From positions 27,605-91,604 of the forward strand of contig JAWOHL010000005.1 in assembly GCA_046485185.1 (NCBI GenBank): DNA of 64,000 bases, written 5' to 3'. Source of the DNA: Candidatus Fermentibacteraceae bacterium (GTDB lineage: Bacteria; Fermentibacterota; Fermentibacteria; Fermentibacterales; JCC-6). Below, piece after piece: positions 11,766-45,526 of the stretch. The notes beneath the pieces were generated by a model. It searched no databases. It was given only the letters and a program-made list of their open reading frames with translations, and was not told the DNA's origin. The position numbers and the translations under genes are program-made. Positions within the stretch are counted from its first letter, which is position 1; each line of letters begins with the position of its first letter.

Positions 11766-12703
11766 ACGCGCTCCTTGCATTGATTGGGTCGGTGCTGGCC
11801 GTTGTGAACTCAGGGGCCGACCGGGTTCTGCACCTCTCCGGAACGCCGGTGGGTATCACAGCTGTCGGAGGGGAATACTGGGTGGTTACCTGCGTTGATC
11901 CGGCGGGTGTTTTCCTTCTGGACCGAAGCGGCTGGACTGTTTCTGAGTATCCCGGTGACTTCCGCGAGCCCCAGGGGACAGGATTGCTCGGAGATGAGCC
12001 TCTGGTGTGCGACAGGGGAGCGAACCGCCTTCATGTAGGTTTTCCCGGGGTCTCCAGAGCGGTGGAACTGCCGGGAGGGCCTTTTGCCGTGACGACGGCG
12101 GACTGGACCGGGAACGGGGAACGGACTGCAGTGGTTACGCTGAGGGATTCGGGTCAGGTGGTCCTCGTGACGGAAAACGGGGCGTTGGTTCTGGCTGCGC
12201 TGCCGGGCGCCCGGACGGCAGCCGCGGTCGACACGGATGGCGATGGCGACGATGAACTGCTTGTAGCGTGCTGCGGGACCGGGCTTCACCTGGTGGTTAA
12301 CCCTGAAGACGGGGGCGAACCTATCGTGAGGCGAATCGGAGTTCTGGGTGATGGCGTTAAGGCATTGGCCACCCTTGATATGGATGCCGACGGCGACCCC
12401 GATGCGGTGGGGATAGCGTGCGCCGAGGGAGGCGTGTGCTGGTGGGAAAACCCCGGCCCGAGCGGTTCGGAATGGTCAAGGCACGACCTTGACCCCGGGG
12501 TCTCGGGCCCCAAATCCATCGCGGTATCCGGCGAAAGGATCCTTGTGTCGGCGCTGTTCAGCCCGTCAATGCTCTACGGCCCAGGTGAGATCAGTTACCT
12601 GCCCCGGGGTTGCACGGCATGCGCCTTCGGCGCTGAAGGGACATTCGTTCTGGCGCATCGCGCAGGCTTCATCATGGAGTTCACGGCAGCCCCTTCTCCT
12701 TGA
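11762..12703 (+). CDS. secreted FG-GAP/VCBS-repeat protein
   Basis: Likely GTG start at 11762 (GTGA overlap) giving a signal-peptide-like N-terminus VNALLALIGSVLAVV. Asp-rich Ca-binding repeats DTDGDGDDELLV and DMDADGDPDAVGI. The ORF-track start at 11597 is probably an upstream extension. Confidence 0.6.
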   Translation: MNALLALIGSVLAVVNSGADRVLHLSGTPVGITAVGGEYWVVTCVDPAGVFLLDRSGWTVSEYPGDFREPQGTGLLGDEPLVCDRGANRLHVGFPGVSRAVELPGGPFAVTTADWTGNGERTAVVTLRDSGQVVLVTENGALVLAALPGARTAAAVDTDGDGDDELLVACCGTGLHLVVNPEDGGEPIVRRIGVLGDGVKALATLDMDADGDPDAVGIACAEGGVCWWENPGPSGSEWSRHDLDPGVSGPKSIAVSGERILVSALFSPSMLYGPGEISYLPRGCTACAFGAEGTFVLAHRAGFIMEFTAAPSP

Positions 12704-12776
12704 GCTTCCGGCACCGCTGCGGGGCTGACAAGAATGAGTCATCTGGATTTTAAAACTATTGTATGACTTTGACTTA

Positions 12777-12812
12777 GCTTACCAAACGAAGTTATCTAAG
12801 TCCGTCCCCCAT
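12777..12812. repeat. direct repeat copy 2, 23-nt perfect core at 12790-12812
   Basis: Identical 23-mer AGTTATCTAAGTCCGTCCCCCAT. It contains the radC stop codon (minus-strand TAG at 12796-12798) and last codons. It is preceded by an AT-rich segment unusual for this genome. Confidence 0.8.
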
Positions 12813-13470
12813 CCATCAAGCCGCGTTCCCTGAGGCTCAAAACGCCTGAGTCGGTTACGATGAAGTGGTCGAGCACACGGAAGCCAAGCTCGTCGCCCAG
12901 CTTCGTGAGCGCTCTGGTGAGGGAGAGGTCCTGCGGGCTCGCCTCGAGCCGTCCGCCGGGGTGGTTGTGCACCAGGATGACTCCCGTGGCGTTGTGGGCG
13001 ATTACCTTTTCCACAAGGTTCCTGGGGTGCACCGTGGCCCTGTCGACCGTTCCGAACTCGAGTTCGGCCTCGGAAAGCAGCCTGTTGTCCTGGTCGAGCA
13101 GGAAGGCGCAGAACCTCTCCTTCCTTCTGGTTCCCAGGCGGGTCTTCAGGTAGTCCCTCACAACCTCGGGGCCAGTGATCTGCAGACTGCCCTTTTCGGG
13201 GGTCAGGGCCAGTGAGTTCATGGAGTGAACCAGTGTTATCAGGGCCGCCGCCGAAGGCCCCACGCCTTCTACCGTCTCTAGGTTGTCGGGGGACTGCCTG
13301 AGGGTGTTTTCGAGGGTCCCGAACTTCTCCAGAAGGGCTGAGGAGACCTGTCTGGTGTCCCGCCGGGGCGCAGCGTAGGTCAGAAGCAGTTCGAGGGCCT
13401 CGCGCTGGGTGAAACCACCGATGCCCACCCGTAAAAGCCTGTTCCTGAGCCTCTCCCTGTGGCCCTCCAT
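12796..13470 (-). CDS. radC: RadC-family JAB/MPN-domain protein
   Basis: LVHNHPGG is the JAMM-like HNHP motif, and the N-terminal RERL..G..LSD.ELLE pattern is RadC-like. The internal ATG at 13468-13470 (MEGHRERL) sits 2 nt after the mscS stop. The ORF-track start at 13578 overlaps mscS. Confidence 0.75.
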   Translation of the reverse strand: MEGHRERLRNRLLRVGIGGFTQREALELLLTYAAPRRDTRQVSSALLEKFGTLENTLRQSPDNLETVEGVGPSAAALITLVHSMNSLALTPEKGSLQITGPEVVRDYLKTRLGTRRKERFCAFLLDQDNRLLSEAELEFGTVDRATVHPRNLVEKVIAHNATGVILVHNHPGGRLEASPQDLSLTRALTKLGDELGFRVLDHFIVTDSGVLSLRERGLMDGGRT

Positions 13471-35325: not shown

Positions 35326-36107
35326 TGGAACACCTCCCGATCATACTGGCGGGAACTGCCCTTCTGTTCTGCTTTTTCTTCGCCACAAGGCTTTTAAAGT
35401 CTCCGTTCTGGAAGAGAAGGCAGCTCCGAAAAGCGTCACTGATGGCGGCCCGGGGCAACATAACCGCCATGACCGGCTACCTCAGGGCCAACATGGACAG
35501 GGGCAGGGTTTCGTGCCCACTCACCAACGCACTGGTGTACTTCTATATACGCTCCGGTGATCTGGACAGCGCCGAAAAGATAGTAACCGACGCCATGGGC
35601 AGGGGCGACAGCTCCGGTGGCGCACTCGCTCAGCTTGCGTACATTGCCCAGGGCCGCAGCGAATGGGAAAACGCCGAGAAGCTCTACAGAAAAGCCATGG
35701 AGGCTGAGCCGTCCCTGGCCCCCACGCTGGGGATGAACATCGCGGGCTCCCTGATCCAGCGCAACACACGGCTCGATGAAGCCGAAGACCTTCTGAACCA
35801 GGCTCTCGATTCAGAGAACGGGCCGTCGCGGAGTTCGGTCCACCTGAACCTCGCCATGCTGAACTCACTGCGGGGAAGCCACTCTCAGGCCAAAGTCCAT
35901 GCCCTCACGGCGTACGAACTCATGCAGGACCTCGAGATCACCCGCCTTGGAAGGGCTCAGGCGCTGGGTCTCGCCGCCGGGGCATCCAGAAAGATGAAGG
36001 ATCCGGTCGAAGCGGCGAGGCTCTCCCAGAAGGCCCTGAAAGTCATGGGGGATCTGTCAGGCGCGGAGAGGCTTCGTACAGAGCTTCAGGAAATGGCTGG
36101 CAGTTGA
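35325..36107 (+). CDS. TPR-repeat membrane-anchored protein
   Basis: N-terminal TM helix followed by TPR-like helical repeats. Confidence 0.55.
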   Translation: MEHLPIILAGTALLFCFFFATRLLKSPFWKRRQLRKASLMAARGNITAMTGYLRANMDRGRVSCPLTNALVYFYIRSGDLDSAEKIVTDAMGRGDSSGGALAQLAYIAQGRSEWENAEKLYRKAMEAEPSLAPTLGMNIAGSLIQRNTRLDEAEDLLNQALDSENGPSRSSVHLNLAMLNSLRGSHSQAKVHALTAYELMQDLEITRLGRAQALGLAAGASRKMKDPVEAARLSQKALKVMGDLSGAERLRTELQEMAGS

Positions 36108-37036
36108 GGAAGGCTCTATGGGCTGTCATTCTGGGAGTGGTGGTCTATACGGCGCTGGTGCTGAGGTCCGACGTGTCCAGGGTGGGCCGGGCCATTTCAG
36201 CTATCCATCCCGCATGGATCCCGGTCTTTCTGGCGCTTCCCCTCTCGAACTACTTCTTCAGGTTCCTGAAGTGGAACTACTTCCTGCGCAGGGTCGGGGT
36301 TTTTATCCCCAAAGGCGAGAGCCTGGCGGTCTTCATCGCAGGTTTCTCCATGACGGTATCGCCCGGCAAGTTCGGTGAGCTCGTTAAATGCGTCATCCTG
36401 AAGGAGAGGCGGGGAGTGCCCGTTTCAATCACCAGCCCCGTGGTGGTGGCTGAGCGGATCACCGACCTTCTCAGCATGGTGTGCCTGGCCGCGGCCGGCG
36501 CGGCCCTTTCGGGGGGCGGTGCGGTGCTTCCCGCCATCGCTGCCGGGGTGGTCTTCGTGTCGTCGGCCATGGTCTTTCTTCTCTGGACCCCGGCGTGGCG
36601 GCTGGCGGCACGGACCGCCTCCCGGCTTCCCGTGCTGAAAACGAGAACCGAAGCCCTCGAAGACTTCAGACAGTCCGCCATTATCCTTCTGGACTTCAGA
36701 AGCATGCTGTTTTCGGTTCCCCTTGGGATTCTGGGATGGGGTCTCGAAGCGCTTGTTCTGTGCGCCGTTGCTGCCTCGATGGGGGTTTCCCTTCCGGCCG
36801 GAGTCGCGCTTCTCAGCCATGCCGCAGGAACCATTGCCGGCGCCGTAAGCATGATCCCCGGAGGCCTGGGCCTCACCGAGCTGACAATAGACGGGATCCT
36901 GGGCGGCTCGATGCCCCACGCTCAGGCGGCTGTCACCACGCTGCTCATGCGCTTCTGTACGTTATGGTTCGGGGTTCTGCTGGGACTGGCATTCATTGCG
37001 GTGCTGGGAAGAAAAACAGGTACGAAAACCAGATGA
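36104..37036 (+). CDS. lysyl-PG-synthase-TM-like 'flippase-like domain' membrane protein (UPF0104 family)
   Basis: About 8 TM helices. Conserved FxGFSMTVSPGKFGELVKCVIL...AERITDLL pattern of the LPG_synthase_TM family. Confidence 0.65.
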   Translation: MRKALWAVILGVVVYTALVLRSDVSRVGRAISAIHPAWIPVFLALPLSNYFFRFLKWNYFLRRVGVFIPKGESLAVFIAGFSMTVSPGKFGELVKCVILKERRGVPVSITSPVVVAERITDLLSMVCLAAAGAALSGGGAVLPAIAAGVVFVSSAMVFLLWTPAWRLAARTASRLPVLKTRTEALEDFRQSAIILLDFRSMLFSVPLGILGWGLEALVLCAVAASMGVSLPAGVALLSHAAGTIAGAVSMIPGGLGLTELTIDGILGGSMPHAQAAVTTLLMRFCTLWFGVLLGLAFIAVLGRKTGTKTR

Positions 37037-37074
37037 CCCCGGCGGATGATCTGCCGGTTACGGATATTATGGAT

Positions 37075-37323
37075 CTAAAGGCCTTCCCTCACACTGCCGG
37101 GGTCGAGGAGCCGCTCGGGATTGCTCTTGTTGAACAGCGAGATCCCGAAGGGCCCCGCGCCTGTAACGCAATTGTTTTGAGGTCCGGGTCCAGGCCCTGC
37201 GCTGCAATCAGGCCCGGTTCCGGGTCCGCCCCCGGCCGCGCACCGGGCATGCCAGCCCATCCCGCCGGCACTGGACAAACCCTGCAGCTCAGGTTTCGTG
37301 TACTTTTCAGGGAAGACAGTCAT
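37075..37323 (-). CDS. candidate RiPP precursor peptide (Gly/Pro/Cys-rich small ORF)
   Basis: 82 aa: MTVFPEKYTKPELQGLSSAGGMGWHARCAAGGGPGTGPDCSAGPGPGPQNNCVTGAGPFGISLFNKSNPERLLDPGSVREGL. It is the last gene of the minus-strand rSAM/PqqD operon. SD AAGGAAG lies about 11 nt upstream, preceded by an AT-rich promoter-like stretch. The core has three Cys in a G/P-rich context. Confidence 0.4.
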   Translation of the reverse strand: MTVFPEKYTKPELQGLSSAGGMGWHARCAAGGGPGTGPDCSAGPGPGPQNNCVTGAGPFGISLFNKSNPERLLDPGSVREGL

Positions 37324-37366
37324 AGGACGATACGCTTCCTTTCAGAACCAACCTCAATATGCTATC

Positions 37367-37762
37367 CTAATGCCAGCGCAACCTTCTGACAATGGCGCAG
37401 TGAACCCTTACCGCAATTTCCGGAACATTTTCGGCCCACAGGGCTCTTCTGCAGAGCGGGCGGTACTTCCGGCGCCTCAGTACACCGATTACTACCGGTA
37501 CGGTATCGAATTGTTCCAGAAGCAACGGAGCGTCCCTTCCCGAACGGTCTCCCGCGGTGTAAAGAAGAACACGCCCGCCCCTTTTCACGGTTCGGACCAC
37601 CCTGTGAACTACCTGATCCTTCGTTCCGTGACCGAGAACCACGACCTGCCCCGGAAGAACACTTGAAACCGGTTGCCGCATCGCCCTGAGGATGTCGCCG
37701 GGTATCAGGGCCGGCCACATCGAAAGCCCCCTCACGAAGCCCCTCATGTATTCCGAAGCCAT
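37367..37762 (-). CDS. ER/archaeal-type (S26B-like) signal-peptidase-like small protease
   Basis: GLSMWPALIPGDI matches the SPase I Ser box (SM-x-P-x-L-x-x-GD). The later VHRVV sits where Lys-dyad enzymes have KRV, suggesting a Ser/His dyad as in SipW/Sec11. 131 aa. Confidence 0.5.
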   Translation of the reverse strand: MASEYMRGFVRGLSMWPALIPGDILRAMRQPVSSVLPGQVVVLGHGTKDQVVHRVVRTVKRGGRVLLYTAGDRSGRDAPLLLEQFDTVPVVIGVLRRRKYRPLCRRALWAENVPEIAVRVHCAIVRRLRWH

Positions 37763-38271
37763 GTCCGGATCAACTGGTCCGAGTCATCGGCCCGTCTTCG
37801 GAGAACCACTGCGGGATGGCTTTTGAAGAGGCTTTCTGTAAAGACCCTGGCAGCGTTCCTCACATGCTGGGGAACCATGTCGAGGACCATGAGCGAACCG
37901 ATCCTCTCGGCTCTGAAAAAGCCGTATTCCGGTGTAAGCCTGAGAACAGCCGGTGAACCCTTCTCGAGAAGGACGATTCCTGAGAGGATTGCCGGCTGGA
38001 TGTGGAAATCTCCCGTCTTCATCCTGTGGGCGCCGCAGGGAAGTGTTCTCACTACGCCGTCGGTGCCCCGGGCCACTACAACGGTGTCATCACCGATGAG
38101 GCGCCAGCCCAGTGACGCCAGGTGATAGGCCACGGTTGTCTTCCCTCCGTTTGAGGGGGCCAGGAAAAGGATGGACCTTTCTTCGAGGGCTACGGCCGCT
38201 CCGTGAAAAAGGGCACCACCGGGGCAGACCGCCATGAGTTGTGCCCGAAGCAGCGACCTTCGGTTATCCAT
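37744..38271 (-). CDS. HprK-related P-loop kinase (HPr kinase C-terminal-domain-like)
   Basis: ILFLAPSNGGKTTVAYHLASLGWRLIGDDTVVV matches the HprK C-domain pattern G-x-SG-x-GKS...L..G..LV-DD-V. Confidence 0.6.
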   Translation of the reverse strand: MDNRRSLLRAQLMAVCPGGALFHGAAVALEERSILFLAPSNGGKTTVAYHLASLGWRLIGDDTVVVARGTDGVVRTLPCGAHRMKTGDFHIQPAILSGIVLLEKGSPAVLRLTPEYGFFRAERIGSLMVLDMVPQHVRNAARVFTESLFKSHPAVVLRRRADDSDQLIRTWLRNT

Positions 38272-39322
38272 GGGTTCTCGACGCGGGGAAAAGACCCTTC
38301 TGGCAGGCCAGTTCGCAGAACCTGTGGGGGGAGGCGAAGCTTCCGCCGACCGAGTAGTTCTCCATGATGCACTTGCCCATACATGAGTTCACGTGGACGC
38401 ACCGGGAACAGATTCCACGGTCGTCCTCCCGCAGGCTTTTTCGAAGCTCGGCAAGGAGGGGGGAGTTCTCCCAGATGTCCTTCAGCTTCTTCCGGGGCCA
38501 GGTTCCCATTGCGAGCTGAGGCAGGCTGTAAGCAATTCCGCAGAAAGAGACGGTACCATCCGGAAGGATTCCCAGAAGGTTGAGAACAGAGCATCTGCCC
38601 GTGGATGCGAGCCTGTTCACGGGGATGAAAGCGTGGGGCGCGTCGGGTATCACGCTGGGCGGAAACTCGCTGAAGACCCATTTCAGGAATTCCAGTGATT
38701 CCGCGATGTGATCCGGATCTGAGAAATGCGAGGCAGAACCTTTGCCCACCGGCGTGATCAGGTTGATCTTCAGGGAAGACACGCCGCTTCCTTCGAGAAA
38801 GGCCACCATGTCCGCCACAGCCTTCCTGTCGGGCCGGTTCACCGACATGATCACCTGGGGGCTGACGGCCGACTCGGAAACGAGCCTGTTGATGAAACCC
38901 ACGGTTTTGCGCCAGGAGCCTTCAACACCCCTGAACGCATCGTGAACGGCCGGCCGGCTCGAATCGAGACTGACCGACACCTGGTGCGGGGGCATCTCGG
39001 CCAGCAGACGGAAAAGATCAGGATGTGTAACGGTTCCATTGGTTTCGAAAGCCACTTCCGGAAAAATGCGGTGGGCTGTTCTGTAGAGGTCGGGAAAACG
39101 GGGATAGAGAAGCGGTTCCCCCCCGGTAAACTTCGCGAAGCGCACACCCATCTCCCCGGCTTCCCTCATGACCGCCTCCCATGAGGACACATCCATGGAC
39201 GAACCGGCGACTCCCTCGTTAACCCAGCAGTGGGCACAGTGAAGGTTGCACCCCGGATACGGGTTGAGGTAGATGTGGTTCAGTGCAGGGATCTCAGGGC
39301 TTCCACAAGGTTCCGCAAGCAC
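38264..39322 (-). CDS. radical SAM enzyme with SPASM domain
   Basis: CNLHCAHC is a CX3CX2C motif. FTGGEPLL. C-terminal Cys-rich CSRCVHVNSCMGKC segment. Confidence 0.8.
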   Translation of the reverse strand: MLAEPCGSPEIPALNHIYLNPYPGCNLHCAHCWVNEGVAGSSMDVSSWEAVMREAGEMGVRFAKFTGGEPLLYPRFPDLYRTAHRIFPEVAFETNGTVTHPDLFRLLAEMPPHQVSVSLDSSRPAVHDAFRGVEGSWRKTVGFINRLVSESAVSPQVIMSVNRPDRKAVADMVAFLEGSGVSSLKINLITPVGKGSASHFSDPDHIAESLEFLKWVFSEFPPSVIPDAPHAFIPVNRLASTGRCSVLNLLGILPDGTVSFCGIAYSLPQLAMGTWPRKKLKDIWENSPLLAELRKSLREDDRGICSRCVHVNSCMGKCIMENYSVGGSFASPHRFCELACQKGLFPASRTHG

Positions 39323-40323
39323 GAAAGCTCATCCCTTCCGGTTGTTTCCCCCCGAAGCAGGGGGTTCACCGGGCAACCGCCCGGGCAGACGTCAAGGTAC
39401 TCACACAGCTCGCAATCAGGGTTTTCTGCCCTGCGTGCAGCAAGTATCGAAAGGAACTCAGCCGTCTTTTCAGAAGCCATGACCTCGTTCAGGGTCTGGC
39501 CGGGGAGCCTTCCCAGGACGAAGCCGTCGAGGTAATCGCAGGGAATGACACTTCCGTCGGCCGCAACGGCGATCTTTCCGGTGCAGCCCCCGCAACTGAA
39601 AGCCCTGCCGCCGGTTTGCCGCGCCCTTCGGTTAAGGGTGTCCCCCGCCATCCTGGCCATGTCCGGAAGAGGGCCGAACACCCGGGGGTCTCCGAGTTCA
39701 AGCAGGTCGAGCCCTGCCTTCACAAGTCCTGCCAGATCGCCGTGAAACCCATCGGGAACCGCGCACTGGGCGGCGAGGACCGGGGTGAACTTCGCTCCGC
39801 CGACCCCCAGGTCGTTGAGCGCGAAGTCGGCTGTTTCGATGACTCTGTCATGGTTCAATCTGGTCACGGTGCAGTTGATGATCACGGGAAGACCTGCCCC
39901 GACAGCCCGCCTTATGCCCTCGACAGCCCTGCTGAAGACTCCTTTACCCCTCAGGGCATCATGGGTTGCGGCGTCGGGGCCGTCGAGCCCCGCCATGATC
40001 AGCGCAAGCCTCGGGCCGGCCCGTTTGAGCAGGGAAGCCGTTTCGGTGGTCAACAGCGTGGCATTGGTGTTCAGGGAGAACCGGAAGGGTTTTTCACTGA
40101 TCATTCCGGTAAAGTCACCGAAATCGCGCCTTGCCAGAGGCTCTCCCCCCGAGACCACAAGCTCGAGCACCTTCGCGTCCAGAAGTCTGTCGAGGATCTT
40201 CTCCCATGTGGTGAGGGGCAGGTCATCACCCGGCGGTCTGACGCCGCAATGGGTGCATGAGAGGTTGCAGCGCCCGGTGATGAGAACGGTTACACTTCTG
40301 GGAGCAAGGGTGATCTCCGTCAC
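39280..40323 (-). CDS. radical SAM enzyme with SPASM domain (PqqE/ranthipeptide-maturase-like)
   Basis: CNLSCTHC is a CX3CX2C motif. VSGGEPL. C-terminal CGGCTG...CELCEYLDVCPGGC SPASM motifs. Confidence 0.85.
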   Translation of the reverse strand: MTEITLAPRSVTVLITGRCNLSCTHCGVRPPGDDLPLTTWEKILDRLLDAKVLELVVSGGEPLARRDFGDFTGMISEKPFRFSLNTNATLLTTETASLLKRAGPRLALIMAGLDGPDAATHDALRGKGVFSRAVEGIRRAVGAGLPVIINCTVTRLNHDRVIETADFALNDLGVGGAKFTPVLAAQCAVPDGFHGDLAGLVKAGLDLLELGDPRVFGPLPDMARMAGDTLNRRARQTGGRAFSCGGCTGKIAVAADGSVIPCDYLDGFVLGRLPGQTLNEVMASEKTAEFLSILAARRAENPDCELCEYLDVCPGGCPVNPLLRGETTGRDELSCLRNLVEALRSLH

Positions 40324-40571
40324 TCAATAACCCCGTTTTGACGCAGTTGGGCCAGGAAGTCGTCCAGGTCCCGCTCGACTTCGGGCCGGTCAGGGTAGCT
40401 CTGCCTGAGGCGGGTCAGGATGTCTTCCCTGGAAGCGCGTTCGTCTATCATGGAGCAGATCGCCACGGCGACTTCCTCCACGATCTGAAGGGCGCCGCTG
40501 TTCACGTTGAAAAGAATGCCACCCTCGGGCTCCCGTCGGAAAACAACACCAGTGGCGAATGAGAGCTTCAT
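40320..40571 (-). CDS. PqqD-family RiPP recognition element (RRE) protein
   Basis: 83 aa. GGILFNVNSGALQIVEEVAVAICSMIDERASREDILTRLRQSYPD...LDDFLAQLRQNGVI follows the PqqD fold pattern. First gene of the minus-strand operon. Confidence 0.75.
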   Translation of the reverse strand: MKLSFATGVVFRREPEGGILFNVNSGALQIVEEVAVAICSMIDERASREDILTRLRQSYPDRPEVERDLDDFLAQLRQNGVIE

Positions 40572-40597
40572 TTATTTCTCCCGGTGTTGAGGAACAT

Positions 40598-40626
40598 TTG
40601 TGTTTTCCCAGCGTATTTGGTAATAT
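40598..40626 (+). promoter_or_regulatory. sigma-70-like promoter (TTGTGT-17 nt-TAATAT) upstream of the 40649 gene, in the divergent region shared with the PqqD operon
   Basis: Read directly from the sequence. 17-nt spacer and a -10 about 20 nt upstream of SD GGGAGGGACGGA. Confidence 0.4.
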
Positions 40627-40648
40627 ACCCCCAACAGGGAGGGACGGA

Positions 40649-41038
40649 ATGAGGATCTGCATCGCTCTTGCGTTTTGTGTTTCCGTTGTCGCTATGGGAT
40701 ACGGGCTTTCCGAAGGCTCGTTCAACCTGCTCAACCCGCCCGCGTTCGGGGGGCAGGGCTTCAGGAACTTTCACAGTACGGCCAGCTTCAGCCTGGTATC
40801 AGGTTCCGGGGGGTCCTGGGGGCAGGGCGCTTACGTTGGCACCATGAACTTCTCGCTGCATCCAAAGGTGACAGCTCTCGTCGACCTTGGCTACGCCCGT
40901 ACCTTCGATTTCTCGGGGGGTGGAAATTTCGGCCATCTGCTGGGCGGGGTTCAATTCCAGTGGAAACCCACTGACGGCAGCACCTTTGTTCTCCAGTACA
41001 ATGGCGCCATTCCCACAGGGCGTATCGAAGGGTTTTAG
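40649..41038 (+). CDS. small secreted Gly/aromatic-rich protein ending in C-terminal Phe (possible outer-membrane-associated)
   Basis: Signal peptide MRICIALAFCVSVVAMG. 129 aa. Beta-strand-like alternation, C-terminal ...GRIEGF. Strong SD. The ORF-track start at 40559 is an upstream extension. Confidence 0.55.
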   Translation: MRICIALAFCVSVVAMGYGLSEGSFNLLNPPAFGGQGFRNFHSTASFSLVSGSGGSWGQGAYVGTMNFSLHPKVTALVDLGYARTFDFSGGGNFGHLLGGVQFQWKPTDGSTFVLQYNGAIPTGRIEGF

Positions 41039-41109
41039 GCACGCTACCCCTGCTTCTCGCACTGGCGGTCAACACCCCCGCAGACTCGCTTTTTTCAAGG
41101 GGTGAGCTT

Positions 41110-41943
41110 TTGCGGGCTCTTCCCCTCTATGTGTCCGAATACAACGAGAATCCCCTGGACTGGTGGGCTGCCTACAGGTCCTGCTGGATACTGAACCGGC
41201 TCGACCGTCCCGATTCCGCCGTGGTCTGGGGGGGTAGAGCGCTTGATCTGCGCCCCGGCAGTTCCGCCGTTCTCGGCGAGTTCCTGAGGGCTCATTCCGC
41301 CTCGCCCGACAGTGTTCTCAAGTACGGCGATCTCGTCTCGGGAGGGGGTGTGTGCCGGTTCAGGCTGGCTCAGGCCGAACGCCGCCTGGGGCTTTCCGGT
41401 GAGCACAATGCCTACCTTCAGTCCACCCTCTCCGCCGGAAACGATTCGGTGAGGGCGGACGCGGCATGCTGGCTCAGCATGCTGCACCCCGGCCGATCCA
41501 TTGAACTCATGGAACAGGCCGTTCTTCTCGCGCCGGGTGAGGAGTTCTACCGAACTGTGCTTGCCGGTCTGTACGCGGAAGAAGGCATGCCTGAAGAAGG
41601 CTTCGATGTTCTCGCCCCCGTGGCGCCCGAGGGTTGTTACTACTGGCAGGCCGTCGCCCGTTGCCACGAAGCCGCGGGAGCGGTCGGGCAGGCGGCATCG
41701 TATTACAGAAGGGCATACCTTTCCCGGCAGAGCCCTGACTTCGCGGCTGATCTGGGCTGGTTTCTCTACCGCGCCGGACGCGACCTGGCAAGGGCTGACG
41801 ATTGTCCTGGCGCAGCGCTCTACCTCCGGGAATCGGCCGAACTCTGGCACCGTGATTCTTCATGGGCCGTCGCCTCCGACTCGCTGCTCACGAGGATAAA
41901 CGAGTTCCTGCTGCTTGAAAGTAGTTGGGAGAGAATACATTGA
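41110..41943 (+). CDS. hypothetical helical (TPR-like) protein
   Basis: 277 aa, high GC3, repeated helical hairpin pattern. An in-frame GTG at 41101 is an alternative start. The antisense 251-aa ORF is judged spurious. Confidence 0.5.
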   Translation: MRALPLYVSEYNENPLDWWAAYRSCWILNRLDRPDSAVVWGGRALDLRPGSSAVLGEFLRAHSASPDSVLKYGDLVSGGGVCRFRLAQAERRLGLSGEHNAYLQSTLSAGNDSVRADAACWLSMLHPGRSIELMEQAVLLAPGEEFYRTVLAGLYAEEGMPEEGFDVLAPVAPEGCYYWQAVARCHEAAGAVGQAASYYRRAYLSRQSPDFAADLGWFLYRAGRDLARADDCPGAALYLRESAELWHRDSSWAVASDSLLTRINEFLLLESSWERIH

Positions 41944-42254: not shown

Positions 42255-45247
42255 TCAGGTTTTTCTTCGGGGACAGGCAGGCCAAGCTCATGAAGACCTT
42301 CGAAGGGCCTGTTCAAGAGGTTCTGTCTTTCGTGGAACAACAGGAGGCTCTCACCGACGACGAGCTCAGGGGCAAGACCCTTGAGTTCCGCAGACGGCTC
42401 GCCCGGGGCGAGACCCTCGACGACCTGATGTGCGAAGCTTTCGCCGTTGTGGTCCAGGCGTGCCGGAGGAACTGCGGCAGGAAGTGGATGGTCACGGACC
42501 ACGAGACAGAGTGGGGCATGATTCCCTTCAGGGTTCAGCTGAAGGGGGCAATGGTCCTGCACAGCGGGATGATAGCGGAGATGGCAACGGGTGAGGGCAA
42601 AACCCTCGTGGCGGTCATGCCCATGTACCTCAACGCCCTCGAACTGAATCCGGACTGGGTTTCACTGGCTGAGCGGGACTGCGGTGAGGACCCCGACACC
42701 TGGACGTTCGAGCCCATCGACGGCGTTCCCGTCGGCGACGGCGCCCACCTTGTAACGGTGAACGACTACCTGGCAAGGCGCGACGCGGAGTGGATGGGTC
42801 CCATTTACCGTTTCCTGGGGCTCACCGTAGGATGCATCCAGGGAGGGATGGATCCCGACCAGAGGCGTCAGCAGTACAACTCCGACATCACCTATGGCAC
42901 CAACAACGAGTTCGGTTTCGACTACCTCCGCGACAACATGGCGGTCCGTATCGAGCACAGGGTTCAGCGAAACCATCACTTCGCCATCGTTGACGAGGTC
43001 GACAGCGTTCTGATAGACGAAGCCCGCACGCCCCTTATCATCAGCGGCCCGGTTCCCAGGTCGAGGAACAGGTACAAAGAGTTCCGGGACCAGGTGGCAA
43101 GGCTGGTGAACCGTCAGACGGACATCGTGAACTCCGTGGTCTCCGATGCCGACACCCTCTGGGAAGAGGGAAAGTCCCACGATGCGGCCACCGCGTACCT
43201 GAAGGCCCGACGGGGTGCCCCCAAGAACAGAAAGCTTTCGAAGACCCTCAGAGACCCCGACAAGCTCAACGCCATCAAGCGGGTCGAGGGGGAGAGGCTT
43301 CGGGACAAGAACATCAGCGAATTGGACGAGGGGCTCTGCTTCTCCATCGACGAGAGGGAGCGGTCGGTCGCCATGTCCGACCTGGGAAGGAAGATACTCA
43401 GCCCCGAAAACCCCGACTTCTTCCTTCTCCGTGACATCGGCGATCTCATAGCCGAGATCGAGGGCCTCGAAATCTCCGAGGAGGAGAAGTTCGAGCGCCG
43501 CAAGACCCTCTACGAAGACCACTCCCAGCGCGCCGAGGCCCTTCACAACATCGATCAGCTCCTTCGGGCTTTCCAGCTCTACGAGAAGGATGTTGAGTAC
43601 GTGGTGCAGGACGGCGCCGTCCTTATCGTCGACCAGTTCACGGGCCGTCTCATGCCGGGCAGAAGGTTCAGCGACGGCCTTCACGAGGCGCTGGAAGCCA
43701 AGGAGAAGGTCGAGATCAGGTCTGAGACCCAGACCCTCGCCACCATCACCATACAGAACTACTTCAGGATGTACGGAAAGCTCTCGGGAATGACCGGCAC
43801 GGCCGAAACCGAGGCCGAGGAGTTCGCGAGCATCTACAAGCTGGAAGTGGCGGTGATACCCACCAACGTTCCCGTGATAAGGGTCGACCACAACGACCGT
43901 GTCTACAGGACGAAACGGGAAAAGTACACCGCGATTGTGGATGAGATACAAAGGCTTCATTCACGGAATCAGCCCGTTCTGGTGGGAACCGTCTCGGTCG
44001 ATGTTTCCGAGGTCCTGTCCAAGCTCCTGAAGGGCAGGAAGATCCCCCACAGTGTCCTGAACGCGAAGCATCACCAGGAGGAGGCCGACATAGTTTCCCG
44101 TGCCGGACAGCCCGGAGCGGTCACCATCGCCACCAACATGGCGGGCCGCGGTACGGACATCAAGCTGTCCCCTCACGTGAGGGAGGTGGATGACGGTACC
44201 GGCGGCAGGGAACCGGGCGGTCTTTTCGTCATAGCCTCGGAACGGCACGAGTCCCGCCGCATCGACAGACAGCTCCGCGGACGGTGCGGCAGACAGGGGG
44301 ATCCAGGCGCCAGCCGTTTTTACATGTCACTGGAGGACGACCTCTTCAGGTTGTTCGCCAGCGAAAAGATGATCGATTTCCTGAAGAAGAATCAGGAGAA
44401 GGACGGCGAACCAATCGAGCACCCTCTTCTGAACCATTCCATTCAGCAGGCCCAGAAACGGGTTGAGCAGTACAACTTCGGGATCAGGAAACACCTCCTC
44501 GAATACGACGACGTTACGAACCGTCAGCGGGAGGTGGTGTACGGCCTCCGGTTCCGCTCCCTGACCGGCGAAGGCCTTCGTGAGGAGATTCGCGACATGA
44601 TCGCCTCAGTGGTTACGGGAGAGCTGGAAGCCTCCATTCCCGGTGGTTCCGAACCCCACGAGTGGAACCTCGAAAGGGCGGCCCTGGCCCTGCGGGACCT
44701 GGCCGGCGCAGTGTTCAACTTCCAGGGGCTCGAAAAGAAACACAAGGATGCGGCGCAGCTGCGAAGCGCTTTGGCGGACATGGTGCTTTCGTACTACGAA
44801 GAGAAGGAGAAGAAACTCGGCGAGAAGCTCATCGTAGACCTTGAGAAGTGGGCTGTTCTCAGCTCGATCGACGGGCTCTGGCGCGAGCACCTCTACTCCC
44901 TCGACCATCTCAAGACCGGCATCGGCCTGCGCTCCATCGGCCAGCGCGACCCCCTGGTGGAGTTCAAGAAAGAGGCTTTCGACCTCTTCGAGGAACTTCA
45001 GGAGAGCATTGACAAACAGTCCGTAAGAAAGGTCCTGAGCCTGTGGCCCGCGGGCATGATGAAGAGAGCGGATCAACCCGTCGGGCAGGCCGTAAGGCCG
45101 GGTCTGGCCGGGTTGTCTTCAGCTCCCGTGCAGCAACCACAGGCCCCTGTCACTGTCAAGCGTGACGACCCCAAGGTTGGGAGAAACGACGACTGCCCCT
45201 GCGGAAGCGGCAAGAAATACAAGAAGTGTTGTGGAGCCCAAACATGA
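42239..45247 (+). CDS. secA: preprotein translocase ATPase SecA
   Basis: N-terminal SecA signature ([51 protein letters not shown]). C-terminal zinc finger [14 protein letters not shown]. Confidence 0.9.
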
Positions 45248-45259
45248 AGGGAGAAAGAG

Positions 45260-45526
45260 ATGACTGAGAACAGGGGAAAAGGTGAGCTCTGGGCTTTTGT
45301 GGCCGGAGCGCTGGCGGGCGGTATAGCCGCGCTTCTTCTGGCCCCCGCCAAAGGCGAGGATACCCGGAAGAAGATAGCATCAACAGCCACTGACCTCTAC
45401 GGCAAGGGTGGACAGATCTACCATCAGGGCGTGGATAAGGCCACGGAGCTTTTCGAAGTCGGCAAGGATAAAGCCGACGAGATGAAGCACAAGGTCGAGA
45501 ACGCGGTGGAATCCCTGAAGAAGTAA
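45260..45526 (+). CDS. YtxH-like small membrane-anchored stress protein
   Basis: GELWAFVAGALAGGIAALLLAPAKGEDTRKK N-terminal pattern followed by a coiled/charged tail. 88 aa. Confidence 0.5.
   Translation: MTENRGKGELWAFVAGALAGGIAALLLAPAKGEDTRKKIASTATDLYGKGGQIYHQGVDKATELFEVGKDKADEMKHKVENAVESLKK

Follow-up and report, generated by a model that had tools for sequence, protein, structure and literature searches.

We show that an open reading frame (ORF) of 82 codons, on the reverse strand of a 64,000-nucleotide stretch of Candidatus Fermentibacteraceae DNA (the window; ORF at 37075..37323), is a genuine coding gene under purifying selection, and that it probably encodes the ribosomally made precursor peptide of a divergent SynChlorMet (SCM)-type radical S-adenosylmethionine (SAM) cassette that is inherited vertically in the Fermentibacterota. 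The original prediction for this DNA had proposed the ORF, with its three cysteines, as the precursor for a neighboring pair of PqqD and radical SAM genes. We found the ORF in place with a translation identical to the proposed one, and the proposed role is supported by the synteny of the locus, the presence of similarly built peptides next to distant ScmF genes, a YxxPxL leader motif and predicted disorder.

Coding status and expression signals of the small gene

The length of the ORF does not by itself distinguish it from chance in this roughly 60% GC DNA, in which 15 kb hold 133 ORFs of at least 40 amino acids (aa); the original prediction had itself cautioned about spurious ORFs in high-GC genomes. 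The abundance of similar-sized ORFs, the lack of a gene call in the source record and the lack of any significant match for the peptide in Pfam and NCBIfam would all be compatible with a spurious high-GC frame, or with the shadow of a gene in another frame or strand. We nevertheless consider such an explanation extremely improbable. In 10 related loci spanning the family, a count of stop codons in all six frames found the peptide frame never stopped, whereas the other five frames were stopped in most. The overlapping 60-aa ORF to which the original prediction drew attention does exist (37089..37271), but it is a shadow only, its frame being among those stopped in most of the related loci. A 302-aa antisense ORF overlaps the gene as well, and we rejected the idea that the peptide ORF is the shadow of either frame on the basis of the stop counts and of the ratio of nonsynonymous to synonymous substitution rates (dN/dS). 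In comparisons with the two closest genome loci, L001 (candidate division Hyd24-12 UBA6080) and L002 (Candidatus Fermentibacteraceae), substitutions at codon positions 1, 2 and 3 numbered 15, 8 and 32 and 7, 6 and 27, respectively, a clear third-position excess, and dN/dS was 0.172 and 0.135 (0.06-0.33 for the operon and flanking genes in the same comparisons). The GC content at third codon positions, a comparison that had been suggested from the outset, is 0.70 for the peptide ORF, within the 0.64-0.79 of its neighbors, as opposed to 0.53-0.67 for the overlapping alternative frames.

Homology searches led to the same conclusion. A word-indexed search returned three 82-aa homologues with 76-89% identity, and a profile search with HMMER, run over 1.84 billion representatives, gave 23 matches, 22 of which are proteins of 67-88 aa, most of them aligned end to end; the exception is a 326-aa protein aligned over a short Gly-rich stretch only. 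A second profile search added further homologues, of which the named ones are from Candidatus Sabulitectum and are annotated as 'hypothetical protein'. The resulting family comprises full-length proteins of 67-88 aa that are about 30-89% identical and keep the invariant residues even at the lowest identities, and all its named members belong to Fermentibacterota. The exact 82-aa sequence is missing from a collection of 15 billion proteins in which the neighboring proteins do occur, and the gene therefore appears to be uncalled in the source record. The neighbors are catalogued at NCBI under Candidatus Fermentibacteraceae bacterium as an S24/S26 family peptidase (MFO7625809.1), a hypothetical protein (MFO7625810.1) and a PqqD family protein (MFO7625813.1).

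The ATG is the sole possible start of the gene, because an in-frame TGA lies 7 codons 5' of it, with no ATG, GTG or TTG among the 6 intervening codons. The Shine-Dalgarno-like AAGGAAG that had been noted before the ORF was located at 37341..37335, and a purine-rich GGAG or AGGA occupies the equivalent position in 6 related loci. The 43-nt gap after the peptidase gene, whose stop codon (TAG) lies at 37369..37367, also stands as described; the 'AT-rich stretch' reported within it is in part that TAG itself. A scan for sigma-70-like sites over the 4.4 kb from 36800 to 41200 found one site against 0.9 expected, a count that is uninformative by itself. The arrangement TTGT(C/T)A-N17-TAnnnT is retained in 7 divergent loci, but its -35 element falls within conserved coding sequence, which makes this conservation only suggestive. 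An internal promoter for the precursor gene at TTGTCA-N17-TAGGAT is thus plausible, and it could raise expression of the precursor above that of the enzymes. In this respect, it is worth noting that only the peptide gene has an intergenic gap, a Shine-Dalgarno sequence and a promoter-like site of its own, while the enzyme genes overlap each other.

A SynChlorMet-like operon conserved in Fermentibacterota

The peptide gene is the last of six co-oriented genes, which begin with a PqqD-family gene and continue with an ScmE-like radical SAM gene, an ScmF-like radical SAM gene, an ScmC-like gene and a gene for an S26-type peptidase (Table 1). The first five overlap by 4 nt (PqqD/ScmE), 43 nt (ScmE/ScmF), 8 nt (ScmF/ScmC) and 19 nt (ScmC/peptidase). 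A small gene co-oriented in an operon with genes for a RiPP recognition element (RRE) protein and a modifying enzyme is the setting of precursors of peptides that are made on ribosomes and modified after translation (RiPPs). Moreover, the cassette context is that of ScmA, the SCM precursor: both radical SAM proteins contain Pfam Radical_SAM and SPASM domains and have ScmE and ScmF, respectively, as their best NCBIfam matches, and PqqD and ScmC/HprK-like genes are adjacent. Scores against the corresponding models, with cut-offs in parentheses, are 233 (400) for ScmF, 144 (400) for ScmE, 18.6 (125) for ScmC, 20.7 (100) for ScmD and 8.2 (35) for ScmA. Since all these equivalog cut-offs are missed, we describe the cassette as SynChlorMet-like rather than canonical.

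The ScmC-like protein matches, in each case below cut-off, HprK_rel_B (E 4.7e-6), HprK_rel_A (E 7.8e-6), Pfam Hpr_kinase_C (E 6e-4) and TIGR04249 ScmC (E 9.5e-4); its orthologues bear a precomputed match to PF27840 ScmC, and a PDB sequence search gave marginal matches only, including HPr kinase at E 0.63. The peptidase matches TIGR02228 sigpep_I_arch (E 6.5e-7) and a nickel superoxide dismutase maturation protease (E 1e-3), likewise below cut-off, and a PDB sequence search with it returned no match. Its motifs GLSMWP..GD (GxSMxP..GD), VHR and GD(R/N) are common to the cassette peptidases of Methanocella and Anaerolineae, and the Methanocella enzyme passes the TIGR02228 cut-off with 53.9 bits. 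Gene callers in related contigs often cut ScmF to 295-310 aa or skip the peptidase.

Conservation of the ORF in syntenic clusters was the decisive check named in the original prediction, and we found a homologue at the end of the same operon in every informative locus. All related contigs with enough flank encode PqqD, one or two radical SAM proteins, ScmC, the peptidase and the peptide; the peptide gene closes the operon wherever a related locus extends far enough to reveal its neighbors, and this order persists down to peptide identities of 35-44%. The whole region from SecA to PBP1A is syntenic within Fermentibacterota, which shows the cassette to be an old and vertically transmitted part of the chromosome of this phylum. 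In the lineage of loci L016 and L017, ScmE has been lost and an ScmF-type protein is the sole radical SAM enzyme kept, with 42% identity to the window ScmF and 28% (over a partial alignment) to ScmE. This lineage carries two tandem copies of the peptide gene, which have divergent cores and lack the RLINPGDV part of the C-terminal tail that is described below. The loss of ScmE together with a degenerate tail may be coincidental, or nature may here have run an experiment that ties ScmE to the tail. We also considered whether the number of cysteines tracks the number of radical SAM enzymes and rejected this, as the lineage with one enzyme has paralogues with two and four cysteines.

Table 1. Positions of the cassette genes and of features of the candidate precursor gene in the window, and of related genes in locus L017
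Feature	Sequence	Position	Strand	Remarks
PqqD-family protein, 83 aa	window	40320..40571	-	Pfam PqqD 45.4 bits (cut-off 23.4); TIGR04248 ScmD, E 3.6e-4
ScmE-like radical SAM/SPASM protein, 347 aa	window	39280..40323	-	TIGR04250, 143.7 bits, E 6.4e-42, cut-off 400
ScmF-like radical SAM/SPASM protein, 352 aa	window	38264..39322	-	TIGR04251, 233 bits, E 5.9e-69, cut-off 400
ScmC-like/HPr-kinase-like P-loop protein, 175 aa	window	37744..38271	-	short form, C-terminal domain only
S26-type (SipW/archaeal-like) peptidase, 131 aa	window	37367..37762	-	NCBI name 'S24/S26 family peptidase'
Promoter-like TTGTCA-N17-TAGGAT	window	37364..37392	-	overlaps end and stop codon of peptidase gene
Shine-Dalgarno-like AAGGAAG	window	37335..37341	-	11 nt 5' of ATG; from sequence
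Probable precursor gene, 82 aa + stop	window	37075..37323	-	ATG start; ScmA-like, divergent; uncalled in source metagenome-assembled genome record
Leader motif YxxPxL (Y8-T-K-P11-E-L13)	window	37285..37302	-	presumed PqqD docking site
Core, C28..G55	window	37159..37242	-	three C-x-x-G units (CAAG, CSAG, CVTG), 12-residue spacing, Gly/Pro-rich
C-terminal tail ERLLDPGSVREGL	window	37078..37116	-	consensus RLINPGDVxxGL; near-invariant G81
Radical SAM protein	L017	5506-6579
Tandem peptide paralogues	L017	7550-7819 and 8001-8231

Anatomy of the peptide family

An alignment of 25 family sequences has nine invariant residues (F4, P5, Y8, P11, G23, W24, C28, G31 and G43) and four that are at least 90% conserved (L13, A26, C40 and G81). 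Its consensus reads MxxFPExYxKPVLxxxxxAxxxGWxAxCxxGxxPxTGxxxCxxGxGPGxxxxC, followed by a variable Gly/Ser-rich stretch and by RLINPGDVxxGL. The three cysteines of the window peptide, C28, C40 and C52, lie in Gly/Pro-rich surroundings. In 21 of the 23 members scored the first cysteine comes exactly 20 residues after the tyrosine; cysteines follow one another at a spacing of 12-13, and 58 of the 71 cysteines in the family begin a CxxG unit, as compared with 14.3 expected. We presume that the core from C28 to G55 is where the radical SAM enzymes would act. The RLINPGDVxxGL tail is found in the Fermentibacterota family only, is missing from the peptides of canonical cassettes and is degenerate in the lineage that lacks ScmE. 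AlphaFold, run with the family alignment, predicted a disordered chain with no fold (mean predicted local distance difference test score 50; predicted template modeling score 0.16), as expected for a precursor peptide.

Related peptide designs near ScmF genes outside the phylum

To look outside the phylum, we traced ScmF homologues to their contigs and scanned metagenomes with an ScmF alignment, which yielded 80 loci. Methanocella sp. CWC-04 has, between ScmF and ScmC, a 92-aa gene whose translation reads MGKLVYEKPQLIKF... and continues with seven cysteines, six of them in CxxG units; an Anaerolineae contig carries between ScmC and the S26 peptidase an uncalled ORF that reads ...AYVKPQLLDLG..CTTG..CPAG... 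A strict pattern that demands [YFW]x[KRQ]Px[LIVMF] together with two or more CxxG units had 21 same-strand matches in the 1.5 kb downstream of ScmF and a single match elsewhere in 480 kb; within the 64-kb window, the peptide ORF is its sole match. A relaxed pattern gave 43 same-strand matches in 40 of the 80 loci, as opposed to 5 on the opposite strand, and in the peptides so found the distance from tyrosine to first cysteine is mostly 18-20, CxxG occurs at 193 of 231 cysteines and the modal spacing is 10-11. The peptides beside distant ScmF genes are short (47-128 aa) and hypervariable, with 18-21 residues from tyrosine to first cysteine and CxxG at 51 of 58 cysteines (about 12 expected). When the Fermentibacterota family was aligned by hhalign to 16 of these distant peptides, the leader matched with 94.6% probability and E 6.5e-8, and this profile-level match shows the leader of the window family to be, in sequence, homologous to SCM-type leaders. 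The leader with its YxxPxL motif and the CxxG repeats are the architecture found beside bona fide ScmF.

By contrast with this shared architecture, the window peptide falls short of membership in the curated ScmA family (TIGR04252, SCM_precur_ScmA). TIGR04252 is the only NCBIfam model that the window peptide touches, with residues 8-60 on model positions 1-49 in an alignment that begins at Y8 and spans the full model, and the score is not significant (E 2.9); the other 24 family members gave no match to the model. Peptides beside ScmF homologues outside the phylum themselves reach just 12-27 bits, short of the cut-off of 35, which indicates that the model is narrow. Many leaders in canonical SCM-type loci read YExPxL or YQxPxx and not YEKPxL, and the curated model under-detects the family for this reason. 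Judged by these scores, the window peptide is a divergent variant and not a formal ScmA member. Several canonical SCM-type loci carry two tandem precursor-like ORFs with different cores: L055 (1719-1991 and 2023-2280), L064 (1700-1912 and 1992-2198) and L066 (3450-3710 and 3842-4075).

Taken part by part, the window cassette and the SCM cassette of models TIGR04248-TIGR04252 consist of the same elements, namely a PqqD-like protein, ScmE and ScmF SPASM radical SAM enzymes, HprK-like ScmC, an S26-type peptidase and a Cys/Gly-rich peptide in which YxxPxL is followed after about 20 residues by CxxG repeats. Differences lie in the gene order, which is D-E-F-C-peptidase-A in the window whereas the SCM peptide directly follows ScmF, and in the shorter ScmC (175 aa) of the window. 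The window peptide differs in its greater length, FPE prefix, GW motif, repeat of 12-13 rather than 10-11 residues and C-terminal tail, and the locus is fixed in the chromosome across the phylum, unlike the SCM cassette elsewhere.

Weighing the precursor assignment

Several observations weigh against the assignment of the peptide as the cassette's precursor. Because the entire neighborhood is syntenic within the phylum, co-location there is not independent evidence. All the cassette enzymes fall below their equivalog cut-offs and the peptide does not reach the ScmA threshold; at 82 aa and with a conserved tail at its C-terminus, it is also not typical of canonical ScmA. The hhalign match spans 16 leader columns only, the likeness of the cores being compositional and at the level of motifs rather than alignable. 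About half of the metagenome loci have no candidate peptide, many of these contigs being truncated, and no exporter or immunity gene is evident within the operon. Finally, a literature search found no paper on the SCM cassette or its model accessions, so the status of the peptide as substrate rests on genomic association. We know of no SCM product that has been characterized.

An alternative that accommodates some of these points is that the gene encodes a real, co-transcribed small protein that is not a substrate but acts otherwise, for example as a Cys-based accessory that binds a metal or cluster, as a scaffold or by regulating the radical SAM enzymes, the true substrate being encoded in trans or not being a peptide at all. 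A chain of 82 aa with motifs at both ends and a tail that canonical ScmA lacks, which moreover fails the ScmA model, would suit such a role, as would phylum-wide vertical inheritance at a fixed site, which is more housekeeping-like than is typical of a RiPP. We think this improbable, given that no fold is predicted and that the leader motif, the distance to the first cysteine and the CxxG repeats are common to hypervariable peptides beside ScmF, a pattern typical of substrates. The tandem duplication in L017, with its divergent cores, also speaks against it, and neither the operon nor the window contains another candidate substrate. A different small ORF, beyond the PqqD gene or elsewhere, had been named at the outset as the outcome that would overturn the prediction, and we found no such competitor in the window. 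We rejected a precursor upstream of the PqqD gene, where there is only a short divergent intergenic space, and one elsewhere, since within 10 kb around the operon the family hidden Markov model finds only the peptide ORF and the strict pattern has no other match in the 64-kb window. A 105-aa ORF that matches the relaxed pattern (45076..45396, reverse strand) is antisense to the 3' end of SecA and to the start of a YtxH-like gene on the forward strand, and we judged it to be a chance match.

If the peptide is the precursor, the reaction that it undergoes is a separate question. Cysteine-derived thioether cross-links are the likeliest single chemistry, by analogy with sactipeptides and ranthipeptides, although this is a guess to which we give somewhat less than even odds. 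It is a substantial possibility, also short of an even chance, that the modification is of another kind, such as conversion of cysteine to another residue, epimerization, C-C or C-O cross-linking in the Gly/Pro-rich spacers or, as in mycofactocin, modification of the conserved C-terminal tail, and that what results is not a large cross-linked peptide but a small fragment resembling a cofactor. There is no conserved acceptor side chain near the cysteines, only the glycine at +3 being conserved, and ScmF and ScmE match SPASM enzymes of mycofactocin, heme-pathway and NirJ type as well as they match sactipeptide and ranthipeptide synthases. Neither enzyme belongs to a characterized thioether-forming radical SAM family by score (cut-off after the slash): ScmF reaches 74/625 against StsB, 65/850 against AlbA and 57/300 against SkfB, and ScmE reaches 71/340 against PapB, all of these scores being no better than those against mycofactocin, heme or NirJ enzymes. 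The conserved ...GL at the C-terminus and the dedicated peptidase resemble the logic of mycofactocin, and inheritance throughout the phylum would fit a cofactor. On the other hand, canonical ScmA-like peptides that lack the tail keep both radical SAM enzymes, the regular cysteine repeats are the only feature common to all members, and the analogy with ranthipeptides with repeated Cys motifs points to cysteine as the reactive site.

Relation to known peptide systems

The leader has parallels in lasso peptides. Paeninodin-type lasso clusters combine a stand-alone PqqD-like B1 protein with an HprK-like P-loop protein, as does the window cassette, and lasso kinases are HprK homologues. BsfK and BsfB1 of lasso clusters have been described (PMC10368454). 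Lasso leaders carry YxxPxL at -17 to -12, near the N-terminus as in the window peptide, with 17 residues to the first modified residue as compared with 18-21 here (PMC10368454). In addition, two peptides adjoining canonical ScmF weakly match the lasso-leader models NF033521 and NF033524 (E about 0.02). By analogy, we infer a link between leader recognition in SCM systems and the YxxPxL/RRE mode of lasso systems. The operon as a whole is nonetheless unlike a lasso cluster. It has no asparagine-synthetase-like lasso cyclase (C) and no transglutaminase-like B2 protease, neither of which was matched by the operon proteins or flanking ORFs in Pfam and NCBIfam; it has radical SAM/SPASM modifiers and an S26-type peptidase instead; and the window peptide is devoid of the lasso Thr/Ile(-2) and of the Gly1...Asp/Glu ring logic.

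As is proposed for the window cassette, ranthipeptide and sactipeptide systems (PapB, with repeated Cys-X3-Asp; AlbA, SkfB and StsB) use a SPASM maturase, leader recognition by an RRE and a core with multiple cysteines in repeated short motifs. They differ from it in that the window cassette has two radical SAM enzymes and a kinase-like protein, its peptide has no conserved acceptor residue, and its ScmF and ScmE score far below the family cut-offs of 340-850. The pathways of pyrroloquinoline quinone (PQQ; PqqA/D/E) and mycofactocin (MftA/B/C/E) likewise start from a small precursor and use a chaperone of the PqqD family, a SPASM radical SAM enzyme and a dedicated peptidase. The window ScmF scores 93 bits against the mycofactocin maturase model and 56 bits against PqqE, below the cut-offs for membership. 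The conserved extreme C-terminus and the vertical, single-copy inheritance of the window family are reminiscent of such cofactor pathways. The C-terminal motif of the mycofactocin precursor is Val-Tyr, whereas the window precursor lacks a terminal Val-Tyr and its family alignment has no evident conserved Glu...Tyr pair; the repeated cysteine units, in turn, have no counterpart in the PQQ and mycofactocin pathways.

These comparisons suggest a possible route from gene to product. The PqqD-like protein would bind the YxKPxL leader, as RRE domains bind lasso leaders, and would present the Gly/Pro-rich core to the SPASM radical SAM enzymes, which would modify the CxxG units. ScmF is likely to be the indispensable enzyme, because ScmF alone survives in the lineage without ScmE. 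The ScmC-like P-loop protein may use ATP to activate the peptide, by phosphorylation or in another way; lasso clusters use HprK-like kinases together with a B1 protein (PMC10368454). Lastly, the S26-type peptidase would cut off the leader at a point after L13 and before C28, a segment in which no AxA signal-peptidase-style cleavage site is consistent across the family; the original prediction had placed a putative leader/core cut after GMGW.

Genes flanking the cassette

Two genes of the window adjoin the cassette in related loci. One is a 159-aa ORF at 40559..41038 (forward strand), divergent from the PqqD gene and called as 129 aa in related loci. The N-terminus of its product resembles a signal peptide and the Gly/aromatic repeats resemble those of a beta-barrel; Pfam and NCBIfam gave no match, and the ORF is conserved beside the cassette in all related loci. 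The other encodes an LPG_synthase_TM/flippase-like membrane protein (36104..37036, forward strand) and converges on the peptide gene across a 38-nt gap; it adjoins the peptide gene in every related locus and overlaps it in L003. The flippase-like protein is the only membrane protein adjoining the cassette, and this adjacency may be mere synteny. The Methanocella cassette is flanked by genes for an ABC transporter and an NTP_transf_5 nucleotidyltransferase (L018, 3476-5296 on the reverse strand and 11783-13012 on the forward strand). It may be that the canonical system is exported and that the Fermentibacterota system, which has no such flanking genes, is not.

Implications

The ScmA precursor is already catalogued as NCBIfam TIGR04252, and the SCM cassette as a whole is known as database models only. 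Here, a gene that annotation of a candidate-phylum genome overlooked emerges as encoding the probable substrate of such a cassette, and the signature to which it belongs, YxxPxL followed after about 20 residues by CxxG units at fixed spacing, recovers dozens of SCM precursors that the ScmA model misses. The lineage without ScmE and the tandem precursors provide natural experiments for working out the chemistry.

A role like that of a cofactor, or a structural one, would be compatible with the conserved tail, with an operon that has no exporter and with vertical inheritance throughout the phylum. Tentatively, and as a reading that we consider rather unlikely on balance, the cassette might make a housekeeping molecule of the whole phylum, for instance a peptide-derived cofactor or a modified peptide associated with the envelope, through a new radical SAM reaction at the CxxG units or the tail, rather than a strain-specific antibiotic. 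Were this so, no other group would offer an easier way into the SCM class than the Fermentibacterota family, whose peptide has few repeats and invariant positions and which includes natural variants both with ScmE and lacking it. Fermentibacterota are abundant in anaerobic digesters, and a product that proved to be a conserved physiological molecule of these bacteria would represent a new class of peptide-derived metabolite.

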